Source: Candidatus Hodarchaeota archaeon | GTDB lineage: Archaea; Asgardarchaeota; Heimdallarchaeia; Hodarchaeales; Hodarchaeaceae | Length of the DNA stretch: 28,822 bases | Direction: 5' to 3' | NCBI GenBank assembly: GCA_016840035.1 | Contig: JAEOTC010000045.1 | Span: 1-28,822, forward strand | Shown: in pieces, positions 13,120-15,486 of the stretch | Numbering within the stretch: the first letter of the stretch is position 1 | Layout: every line of letters starts with the position of its first letter | The notes under the pieces: generated by a model | Database searches by the model: none | What the model was told of the DNA's origin: nothing | What the model saw: only the letters and a program-made list of their open reading frames with translations | Made by a program: the position numbers and the translations under genes

Positions 13120-15486
13120 ATGGGCAAGGCACCACTGATGAGTTTCAATGAGAATAAAATTATCTGTTTTCCAGATCATTTTGATCTCGCGGACTCTTTA
13201 GTTAAAATAAAGGTGTCACATCCACTTTTGATTGTTTATGATGTTTCTAAATATTTCTACTCAAGTACGAAACAAGTATTCCCTAGGGTGGATATGGAAG
13301 AAATATATGACTTAGATTCTTCCTTTAAAATGCATTCTAAGGAATCCTTTAAGACATTCTTACGAGTAGTGTCAAAAACTGTTACCGCATCCCGAATACT
13401 ACTGAATTCGAACGGATTTCTTGCAGTACAAGTTAATGGGACAATTAAAGTTCCTGTGAAGAGAATTTTGGACTCAATATTCTCACAAAAGCACTTTATG
13501 AACGAGATTATCATTGATTCCCCTGTAAAAGTAAAATATAATGATGAAACATCGTTTTTTGAGAGAACGGAGTATATTTTGCTATATAGTGCCACACTTA
13601 CTCGAAAAATTAATCCTGTCTACGATAAAAAAGAAAGCGGAGGATATTGGCACTCATTCGTCTCAAAAGGGCAAGGTTCAGTTAAGGATTTTCTAATTGA
13701 TGGGAAAATTATCTCATTGGAACCTCCCAGGGGAACTCATTGGAAATTGAAACAGGAAACGATTCTAAAACTGTGTAAAGAAGGAAAAATCAGATTAAAC
13801 AGGAAGGGAAATCCCGAATATTGGGTACCTCCTAAAATCGGACAAATAGTTGATACAAATTGGCTTGATTTAAAATTAACAAACGTGAATAATCTTCAAG
13901 AATCCTACTATTCACGCTTATACAAACTTTTGCTGAAACCAGATCAGTCTGCGCTGATAATCAACCCTAGAAATTCTACTATGTTAAAGGATGCTTCTAA
14001 GTATGGAATATATTGGATCTGTACCATTAAGAGAAAAAAAGCCTTGGACCTGTTGAAATCATCACTTACTGAGGATAATATTAGGTTTCAAGAACGACTT
14101 GCTAAAAAAGCAAATTTTCCTGTACCAAGTTCTAGTGTTAAATTTTCTGGGATCAATGAAGGAGAAATCCCACAGACCCCAGAAGAATTGGAAGATCTGT
14201 CTGCAAGATCAGCGTATCCTCCAGATTTGAATTCAAAATCCGAAAGTGGTTTAGTTTTTTCAAATTTATTAATTAGAGCAGATTGCACTAGTGTTCTACC
14301 TTTACTGAGAACACAATTTCATCAGGCTATTAAATTAATATATATTGATCCTCCTTTCTATACTGGATACGACGAAGCAATATCTATCCCTCTTCAAAGA
14401 GGAAAAGAGGGGAACCATGATAAAATTAAAGGATCAGAGACATTCCTCAAAACCATTGCATATAAAAATGTTTTATCATCTGATAACCCAATAGAAGTCT
14501 TCAAACACTGGTTAAGGAATCGTGTGGTCCTAATGAAGCCGTTATTAAGTCTAGATGGGTTTATTTTTGTCAGGTTTGATTATCATTTTGGTCATTATGC
14601 ACAAGAAGTCTTAGATGAAATCTTTGGAGAATCTAATTTTATAATCGAATTTATTATTCGAAGAATGAAGAAAAATTTGTCAGAAAAACAGCTAAATCAA
14701 CAGACACGCCTTATAGTTCATGCTGATTCTCTTTTTGTTTATCGCGGGAGTAACCGCGCCAAATTTAAGAAGGAAATGATAAAGAAATCAACTAGGAAGA
14801 ATCAGAATGTAGCAGAGATTGAATATTCAAACGATAACCTTTGGATTGATATTGCAGGTTATCAGAAGGTCAAACGAACGATTTATCCCACAGAGAATTC
14901 AGAAACATTATTACGAAGAGTTATTGATATCGCCACGGAAGAAGGAGATCTAGTGGCTGATTTTTTTGCTGGATCGGGAACCACGCTTGCCGTTGCGGAA
15001 CAGCTAAATAGAAAGTGGCTTGGTGTTGATATTGGTCCCCTCTCAATAAATGAAATTCGTAAGAGAATATTAAGGATTGATAATAGAACCTCTTTTGAAG
15101 TTTATGATGAATCTCCAACATTTGGATCAGAGAAGGAAAGTAATTTCAAAATTGAAACGAAGATTAAAAAACAAATCATTACACACGGTACAAAAATTAT
15201 TATATCGTTAATTAACTTGAAATACCAAACTCCATTACACGATTTGGAACACCATGCCTTTACAGATCTAATCGATTACTGGGAAATCGATTGGTACTAT
15301 AATAACTCTATTGCAAGAATCCATTGGAACTCTTCCAGGAAGCTAAGAGGAAAAGAGGTTGTAGAAGGTGTTTCACTCTCGGTTTCTCACAACTATGTTG
15401 ATAATCGTAAACATACGATATGGGTGAATGTTGTTGATATTCTTGGGAATGTATCCCACAAGACGATTAAAATTGATTTACAATGA
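13120..15486 (+). CDS. Beta-class (Mod-like, N6/N4) DNA methyltransferase with tandem duplicated MTase folds
   Basis: C-terminal copy has 'IYIDPPF' (DPPF at 14347), 'YPTE' and 'DFFAGSGTT' (14959-14985); N-terminal aa ~12-317 is a degenerate copy; terminal 'IDYWEIDW...VVDILGN' domain. Confidence 0.9.
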   Translation: MGKAPLMSFNENKIICFPDHFDLADSLVKIKVSHPLLIVYDVSKYFYSSTKQVFPRVDMEEIYDLDSSFKMHSKESFKTFLRVVSKTVTASRILLNSNGFLAVQVNGTIKVPVKRILDSIFSQKHFMNEIIIDSPVKVKYNDETSFFERTEYILLYSATLTRKINPVYDKKESGGYWHSFVSKGQGSVKDFLIDGKIISLEPPRGTHWKLKQETILKLCKEGKIRLNRKGNPEYWVPPKIGQIVDTNWLDLKLTNVNNLQESYYSRLYKLLLKPDQSALIINPRNSTMLKDASKYGIYWICTIKRKKALDLLKSSLTEDNIRFQERLAKKANFPVPSSSVKFSGINEGEIPQTPEELEDLSARSAYPPDLNSKSESGLVFSNLLIRADCTSVLPLLRTQFHQAIKLIYIDPPFYTGYDEAISIPLQRGKEGNHDKIKGSETFLKTIAYKNVLSSDNPIEVFKHWLRNRVVLMKPLLSLDGFIFVRFDYHFGHYAQEVLDEIFGESNFIIEFIIRRMKKNLSEKQLNQQTRLIVHADSLFVYRGSNRAKFKKEMIKKSTRKNQNVAEIEYSNDNLWIDIAGYQKVKRTIYPTENSETLLRRVIDIATEEGDLVADFFAGSGTTLAVAEQLNRKWLGVDIGPLSINEIRKRILRIDNRTSFEVYDESPTFGSEKESNFKIETKIKKQIITHGTKIIISLINLKYQTPLHDLEHHAFTDLIDYWEIDWYYNNSIARIHWNSSRKLRGKEVVEGVSLSVSHNYVDNRKHTIWVNVVDILGNVSHKTIKIDLQ

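Follow-up and report, generated by a model that had tools for sequence, protein, structure and literature searches.

A stretch of 28,822 nt (hereafter the window), representing positions 1 to 28,822 on the forward strand of contig JAEOTC010000045.1 of a Candidatus Hodarchaeota archaeon (assembly GCA_016840035.1), was analysed around one of its genes, an uninterrupted open reading frame (ORF) that encodes a methyltransferase (MTase) of 788 amino acids (aa), P0001. P0001 consists of two unequal copies of the beta-class MTase fold joined by a linker. The N-terminal copy (N copy) has lost the catalytic motif IV and the motif I that binds S-adenosylmethionine (SAM), and it harbours a long insert at the position where Type III Mod proteins carry their target recognition domain (TRD); the C-terminal copy (C copy) retains both motifs and lacks the insert. 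The features of the gene, all on the + strand, are the following.

13120–15486, + strand: whole gene of the fused ModN::ModC MTase P0001 (788 aa, uninterrupted single ORF)
13120–14109, + strand: N copy (aa 1–330), a beta-class MTase fold predicted to be catalytically dead, identified by hhalign against the C copy and by an AlphaFold2 (AF2) model
13240–13251, + strand: eroded motif IV of the N copy, D41-V-S-K at the position aligned to the DPPF of the C copy
13624–13869, + strand: insert of the N copy at the TRD position (aa 169–250), with an invariant PPxGxHW and flanking motifs and without a C-copy counterpart in the profile alignment
13945–13986, + strand: eroded motif I (SAM-binding loop) of the N copy (aa 276–289), aligned to D-x-x-A-D-F-F-x-G-S-G-T-T of the C copy
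14110–14256, + strand: linker (aa 331–379), mostly disordered (predicted local distance difference test, pLDDT, <50 at aa 330–356 and 373–378) and of 13% mean identity
14257–15099, + strand: C copy (aa 380–660), an intact beta-class N6/N4 amino-MTase (PF01555, E 8e-39; PADLOC MTase_III, E 1e-51)
14347–14358, + strand: catalytic motif IV, DPPF (aa 410–413), with D410, P411 and P412 invariant in 52 of 52 homologues
14755–14832, + strand: short segment at the TRD position of the C copy (aa 546–571; 26 aa), opposite the 82-aa insert and basic (8 K+R versus 3 D+E)
14965–14979, + strand: SAM-binding motif I, F-A-G-S-G (aa 616–620), with G618 and S619 invariant and F616 and G620 in at least 90% of homologues
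15100–15486, + strand: variable spacer (aa 661–715), conserved all-beta tail (aa 716–788; predicted strands, pLDDT ~90) and stop codon

The two halves of P0001 are homologous beta-class MTase folds, with a similarity far past chance. Profiles were built from an alignment of 52 full-length homologues (A1), which is also the source of the family motif counts given here. When compared by hhalign, aa 3–332 aligned with aa 373–668 over 269 columns (probability 99.6%, E 4.1e-24), and this self-alignment reproduced the motif-by-motif pairing of aa ~12–317 with aa ~382–650 that had been proposed in a first-pass annotation of the window. By BLASTP of half against half, one weak match was found (aa 75–132 versus 459–513; 33% identity, E 2e-4). 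The Pfam family PF01555 matches the C half strongly (E 6e-35; E 8e-39 for aa 404–640), with 134 bits versus a gathering cut-off of 26.7, while the N half, at 21.5 bits (E 2.6e-4), lies under the cut-off. The alignment holds one large difference between the copies: the 82-residue segment at aa 169–250 of the N copy stands opposite merely 26 residues of the C copy (aa 546–571), so that the ~90 versus ~30 aa first estimated for these segments was about right.

Across the family, the catalytic motifs are retained in the C copy and lost from the N copy, as the first-pass annotation had read from the single sequence. The C copy shows the beta-class motif order, with DPPF at aa 410–413, YPTENS (the motif X region) at 589–594 and FAGSG at 616–620; its DPP is invariant (52 of 52), and the FxGSG pattern is present in 51 of 52 C copies. 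DPPF is the usual motif of enzymes that form N6-methyladenine (m6A), and its presence here suggests an N6-adenine product. In the N copy, by comparison, motif IV ([DNS]PP[FYWH]) is found in none of the 52 homologues: the window protein reads D-V-S-K and the family mostly DLS, the Asp being retained in 48 of 52. A motif I resembling F/YxGxG occurs in just one of the 52 N copies, the segment is variable across the family, and the former SAM-binding half is the least conserved folded part of this copy (22% mean identity). Given the erosion of motif IV, with the SAM-binding loop eroded too, the N copy is presumably unable to methylate. The fused P0120 and the stand-alone P0122 harbour dead copies that retain an FxGSG motif I without motif IV; these are possible intermediates where SAM binding outlasted catalysis.

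Though motifs IV and I are eroded, the order of beta-class segments is kept in the N copy, and so is the predicted fold. As the full-length Foldseek output gives no query ranges, the N half was modelled alone by AF2 (pLDDT 85.8), and the MTase fold on which the first-pass annotation had staked its reading was found: by VIA-align the model matched CcrM (Z 19.3; root-mean-square deviation 3.4 Å over 218 residues), Mbo45V Mod (Z 19.0) and EcoP15I Mod (Z 18.7; 295 residues aligned), with ~20 solved beta-class MTase entries at Z 16–19 and METTL3 and MTA1 at Z 11–12, and by Foldseek it matched 4zcf (E 2e-11). The sequence profile of the N half, searched against the Protein Data Bank (PDB), likewise finds Type III Mods (6k0w, 1e-10; 7dsu, 8e-10; 4zcf, 1.5e-6). 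For the full-length protein, the AF2 model (pLDDT 82.6; predicted template modelling score 0.84) matched 6k0w and 6pbd by Foldseek with E 1e-14, and the best PDB matches by phmmer were the 6k0w Mod (1.8e-15) and EcoP15I Mod (1.2e-10). Type III Mod proteins are thus the nearest relatives of P0001 in both sequence and structure.

No segment of the protein is better conserved than the insert. Its mean identity to the window protein is 73%, versus 35% for the N core before it and 22% for the N core after it; the corresponding values are 13% for the linker, 56% and 69% for the C core, 15% for the spacer and 39% for the tail. This profile of conservation, with the insert and the C core high and the N core low, fits subfunctionalisation of the two copies. 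Furthermore, 27 of the 35 invariant columns of the N copy fall in the insert, whose PPxGxHW core is present in 52 of 52 N copies and which carries a net positive charge. Its central motif aligns to a segment of the Helicobacter pylori Mod 6k0w in the search of the N-half profile against the PDB, and the insert is also harboured by stand-alone ModN proteins and by complete single-copy Mods. The tail, with invariant D719, W721, W725, R740 and D773, is shared as well, namely by stand-alone ModC, by complete single-copy Mods and by part of the ModN proteins; a look-up of aa 668–788 in the ESM Atlas returned unnamed clusters only (scores ~0.9).

To model how the halves pack, the N half (A2) and the tail-bearing C half (A3) were entered as separate chains in three runs of complex prediction. 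The predicted complex reached an interface score (ipSAE) of 0.85 in the three runs, versus 0.00 for the best of three controls; this mark was attained in 58 of 80 solved complexes and 2 of 110 mismatched pairs. The runs share at least 93% of contacts, with a pLDDT of at least 81 in the partners. When the interface was mapped via the alignment of the two copies, the C equivalents of 29 of the 42 N interface residues were also interfacial, and 38 were so within two positions. Reciprocity is seen in the tightest contacts (C573–N147 and N246–C532, N246 being the equivalent of C573 and C532 that of N147), and the body of the insert (aa 170–240) lies outside the predicted interface. The interface is thus predicted to be pseudo-two-fold and homodimer-like, as would be expected from the suggestion in the first-pass annotation that the two folds should pack as the Mod dimer. 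Binding between the N and C halves is supported rather than proved by these models, as the score may partly mirror the likeness to solved beta-class homodimers.

The fused protein belongs to a family of Asgard archaea. About 50 full-length homologues (745–867 aa; 38–73% identity) were found; all of the named ones are from Asgard archaea, and the nearest carry the label Hodarchaeales. The gene is single-copy in the window's own genome, and orthologues in related genomes occupy stop-free frames of 791–837 aa. Strong matches to the N half were found in 17 of 20 sampled genomes of group g1, to which the window belongs, and in few genomes elsewhere in the phylum, so the gene is apparently lineage-specific and vertically inherited in g1. 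Moreover, in 12 of 12 related loci the gene sits in a syntenic block of constant order, namely TGT-like (−), DUF6884, TGT-like, MTase and YjbQ/UPF0047, then a 143-aa ORF, TFIIB (−), a 143-aa ORF (−), HflX and subtilase. Across these loci the MTase orthologues are 39–55% identical, versus 73–96% for TFIIB, indicating that they evolve faster than their housekeeping neighbours. No res gene flanks the MTase in the window or in the 12 syntenic loci. The window gene is regarded as a derivative of Mod and not as a member of a working Type III system.

To trace the relatives of the two copies, the N-half profile was searched against 1.8 billion representatives, followed by domain scoring, and four architectures were found: (i) fused proteins like that of the window; (ii) dead copies encoded on their own, which have the insert and in most cases the tail (P0116, P0064, P0122 and P0123; 582–599 aa); (iii) stand-alone live copies without the insert and with the tail (P0059 and P0060); and (iv) complete single copies with DPPF, insert, FxGSG and tail (P0061, P0062, P0136 and, from a genome of the same order, L026). 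The last sit in ordinary mod–res pairs, next to ResIII genes. The stand-alone copies of (ii) and (iii) come together in the operons L052 and L054, where a modN without DPPF but with the insert and a modC with DPPF and FxGSG but without the insert flank a res gene encoding an 858–867-aa ResIII helicase with a nuclease domain. Partial forms of this modN–res–modC arrangement were found at L040, L039 and L053. Identity of the window N half to ModN proteins is 35–47%, and that of its C half to stand-alone ModC is 51–53%. No res gene was found beside fused genes in any of the four contexts checked (the window lineage, L062, L063 and L064). The split operons came from protein collections rather than from the 300 sampled genomes of the phylum, in which the search for stand-alone ModN returned only fused genes, a complete single-copy gene (G286; L026) and one weak match (G149; 411-aa frame).

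In an IQ-TREE phylogeny of 58 MTase cores, the N copies, fused and stand-alone, form one clade (SH-aLRT support 100) and the C copies another (97); the two clades are sisters (85), and the complete single-copy Mods fall outside. This topology is consistent with a single duplication and subsequent reciprocal loss. Both clades show the same interspersed pattern of fused and split forms, P0111 grouping with the genes of L052 and P0120 with those of L054, for example, from which it follows that the two halves co-evolved and that the fused or split state switched several times. As the dead and live copies of relatives are encoded by separate genes to either side of res, duplication and reciprocal loss presumably predate the fusion, and the single chain probably arose from a gene fusion at a later stage, in step with the loss of res. 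Thus, the earlier proposal that duplication and reciprocal loss had fixed the division of labour holds, except that this did not take place within one polypeptide. A three-stage series is inferred, from a canonical mod–res pair, through modN(dead)–res–modC(live), to the fused gene devoid of res. By parsimony, the fusion most likely arose when res was deleted together with the C-terminal part of modN from such an operon: as stand-alone ModN keeps the tail and res lies between modN and modC, one deletion (the 3′ part of modN plus res) yields the fused gene, while the reverse direction is less parsimonious because it needs insertion of res plus regain of the tail.

Several observations were made beside this series. 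L039 and L053 (GCA_026702845.1) appear to be one modN–res–modC operon of a single genome split over two contig ends, where an IS66 transposase gene comes after the res fragment of one contig and modC of the second contig is adjoined by Tn7-like TnsA/TniB genes. Four Asgard PF01555 proteins of 731–858 aa (L022–L025, from G063, G036, G111 and G075) were considered as degenerate tandems and rejected as unrelated architectures; their N-terminal 340–400 aa matched neither the N nor the C profile beyond a single MTase domain, and no Pfam family at E ≤1. P0135 (1598 aa) harbours three PF01555 domains, each with intact DPPF and FxGSG, and represents a triple live tandem, distinct from the dead-plus-live design.

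That one subunit of the EcoP15I Mod dimer reads while the other methylates, as stated in the first-pass annotation, is published: ModA recognises the site through its TRD, while its C-terminal domain contacts Res; the adenine is flipped by ModB into the DPPY pocket of the latter, and the geometry bars one Mod from doing both (PMC4490356). The same dimer logic has been argued for the entire beta class, including the dead-partner pairs METTL3–METTL14 and MTA1–MTA9 (PMC7544214). P0001 shares with the Type III Mod homodimers (EcoP15I Mod2; PDB 4ZCF, 6K0W and 7DSU) the beta-class fold and motif order, and these are the best matches of both its halves; its insert lies where the Mod TRD lies, with part of it aligning to a Mod motif, and its close relatives are likewise encoded beside Res genes. 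It differs in that the roles are hard-wired into one polypeptide, one copy being without motifs IV and I and the other without the insert, whereas the Mod homodimer has a TRD in each chain; in that no res gene is adjacent and none was found in the window's genome; in that the N copy has lost the C-terminal tail, whose counterpart domain in EcoP15I ModA contacts Res; and in that typical Mod TRDs are longer than the insert and much less conserved.

Other known enzymes resemble P0001 in part. METTL3–METTL14, best known for RNA methylation, and MTA1–MTA9 (both MT-A70) follow the same logic of a live writer with a dead partner whose motif IV is eroded, which P0001 realises within one chain, but the resemblance is functional only. 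These pairs are two separate eukaryotic proteins of another family and of independent origin, with fold matches of Z 11–12 versus 16–19 for PF01555 enzymes, whereas the duplication behind P0001 lies inside the Type III Mod clade; a Pfam scan of P0001 with a limit of E 1 listed PF01555 along with weak generic MTase families, and no MT-A70 domain. CcrM, M.RsrI, M1.MboII and M.BceJIV are similar in fold (Z 17–19) and are obligate dimers that share labour between subunits, but they are homodimers of identical, fully active chains, and none is a fused dead-plus-live tandem. The Asgard ModN/ModC pairs of L052 and L054 are direct homologues of the two halves, with the same pattern of erosion and the same tail; unlike P0001, they are separate genes around an intact Res helicase-nuclease and presumably constitute a restriction system whose Mod is heterodimeric.

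Division of labour within a dimer is already known, as are heterodimers with a dead partner, while a literature search, with REBASE and subscription journals outside its scope, found no described dead-plus-live Mod pair of a prokaryotic Type III system and no natural single-chain version. Beta-class amino-MTases of DNA and RNA are thought to work only as dimers in which one subunit reads and the other writes, and the direct support comes from a few solved complexes, chiefly EcoP15I and CcrM, plus the eukaryotic pairs. The P0001 family represents a natural experiment in which the chemistry was removed from one copy and the insert from the other, with both tied together, so that the reader/writer model becomes testable in one small protein. 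The stepwise series shows a restriction system turning heterodimeric and then into an orphan methylase. Moreover, the family is an independent prokaryotic parallel to the dead-partner m6A writers of eukaryotes, in the archaeal group nearest to them, and a monomeric, single-chain, site-specific beta-class MTase could suit as an engineering scaffold.

Considering the above, P0001 is probably a hard-wired pair of a dead 'reader' N copy and a live 'writer' C copy in one chain. The ModN-derived N copy would contribute the fold, the dimer interface and the conserved insert at the Mod TRD position, and the ModC-derived C copy, having lost its insert, would contribute the DPPF/FxGSG chemistry. Packed via equivalent surfaces like a beta-class homodimer, the N copy would hold and position DNA while the C copy makes N6-methyladenine, in analogy with ModA and ModB of EcoP15I; it is by this analogy that the insert may be assigned the role of reader. 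The N copy would thus be the insert-bearing, non-catalytic partner, and its loss of the tail, whose ModA counterpart binds Res, would be in step with the loss of Res.

Several points weigh against this model. At 82 aa the insert is shorter than the EcoP15I TRD (122 aa; aa 263–384), and it is far more conserved than the usual TRDs of restriction-modification systems. It may instead be a structural element or one that grips the DNA backbone, part of it being common to the H. pylori Mod of unrelated origin, and sequence discrimination could reside elsewhere, for example in the tail, the C copy or the variable spacer (15% identity). The conservation of the insert is too high for a fast-evolving specificity module: either one target is shared family-wide, or the insert grips or distorts DNA with discrimination elsewhere. 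On the evolutionary side, the sister relation of the N and C clades is moderately supported (85), with the N clade on a long branch, and the failure to find a Res homologue in the window's genome comes from a single query of a genome that is 87% complete. In an alternative reading, the N copy would be only a structural pseudoenzyme, a scaffold that meets the demand for dimerisation and stabilises or activates the C copy without reading DNA, specificity lying in the C copy, the spacer or the tail. Beta-class MTases have been argued to need dimerisation for activity (PMC7544214), the interface elements of P0001 are conserved and confidently predicted, the near-invariant insert, partly common to other Mods, is unlike a TRD that determines specificity, and the spacer (aa 661–715) is highly variable. 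However, a pure scaffold has no need of the insert, which is the best-conserved segment (73%), is present in all dead copies, whether fused or on their own, and has been lost from all live partner copies, and which is positively charged and placed where Mods carry the TRD. The scaffold is judged unlikely, though it deserves to be kept in mind.

A substrate other than duplex DNA was also weighed, with P0001 acting as a housekeeping enzyme of the Asgard lineage that methylates RNA, or single-stranded or otherwise modified nucleic acid. The constant position of its gene next to those of TFIIB, HflX and YjbQ in all 12 of the related loci, without a nuclease partner and adjoining TGT-like genes, is in line with such a role, the invariant insert suggests a single conserved target, and some beta-class MTases act on RNA or single-stranded DNA (PMC7544214). 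Yet the nearest relatives at every level are Type III Mods encoded beside Res, which are DNA enzymes; among the Asgard genomes sampled, the gene is confined largely to a single lineage (17 of 20 in g1, few elsewhere), which is not the pattern of a core RNA modification; and it evolves much faster than its housekeeping neighbours (39–55% versus 73–96% for TFIIB). This alternative is considered very improbable. That the fusion is an artefact, by an assembly or frame error joining adjacent genes, or a decaying pseudogene, is practically negligible: the linker is disordered and poorly conserved, but an unbroken frame of ~790–840 aa is seen again in 17 related genomes and, among independent assemblies, in ~50 database homologues, both halves contain invariant columns, and four separate fused lineages were found. 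A bolder extension of the reader/writer model, for which the odds seem poor, would make P0001 a domesticated, vertically inherited epigenetic writer of a single Hodarchaeales-like Asgard lineage that, with the two conserved neighbouring zinc-less TGT/DpdA-like paralogues and the DUF6884/DpdC-like protein, lays a nuclease-free dual mark of m6A plus a 7-deazaguanine derivative, the invariant insert reading a fixed genomic signal, possibly a deazaguanine-modified site.

The genes next to the MTase include a trio at window positions 10476–13059, in which two divergent TGT-like genes (312 aa, −; 350 aa, +), with weak TGT matches only, flank the gene of a 165-aa DUF6884 protein. The latter is matched weakly by the PADLOC models of DpdC (E 1.8e-6) and by PDC-M57A (E 5e-13). 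An obligate link between the MTase and this trio was considered and rejected in its strict form, as the trio occurs without an adjoining MTase in G241 and G062. Orthologues of the TGT-like gene at 12007–13059 carry in-frame stops in two genomes, one TGA in one and a TAG plus a TAA in the other (G102:C4:121907-122920 and G130:C9:42025-43044), which may reflect decay or sequencing error. In L064 (GCA_014729935.1; 1456–8250), another fused ModN::ModC protein, P0119, is encoded next to a gene of the QueT family (queuosine-precursor transporter), with a dCTP deaminase/dUTPase gene and two further PF01555 genes also among its neighbours; L064 represents a second, independent neighbourhood link of this MTase family to 7-deazaguanine-related genes.

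Further upstream in the window, positions 7641–10442 encode a 933-aa Eco57I/MmeI-type adenine MTase (Type IIG/IIL-like, PglX-like) with a TaqI_C specificity domain, which is a variable neighbour present in just 5 of the 12 syntenic loci. In the 60-nt gap between the TGT-like gene and the MTase, an A/T-rich TTAAAT element (window 13090–13119) lies ~30 nt 5′ of the MTase start codon and might be the gene's own archaeal TATA box. The two 143-aa ORFs downstream (window 16146–16577 and 18001–18432), although without a family match, are kept in 12 of the 12 syntenic loci.

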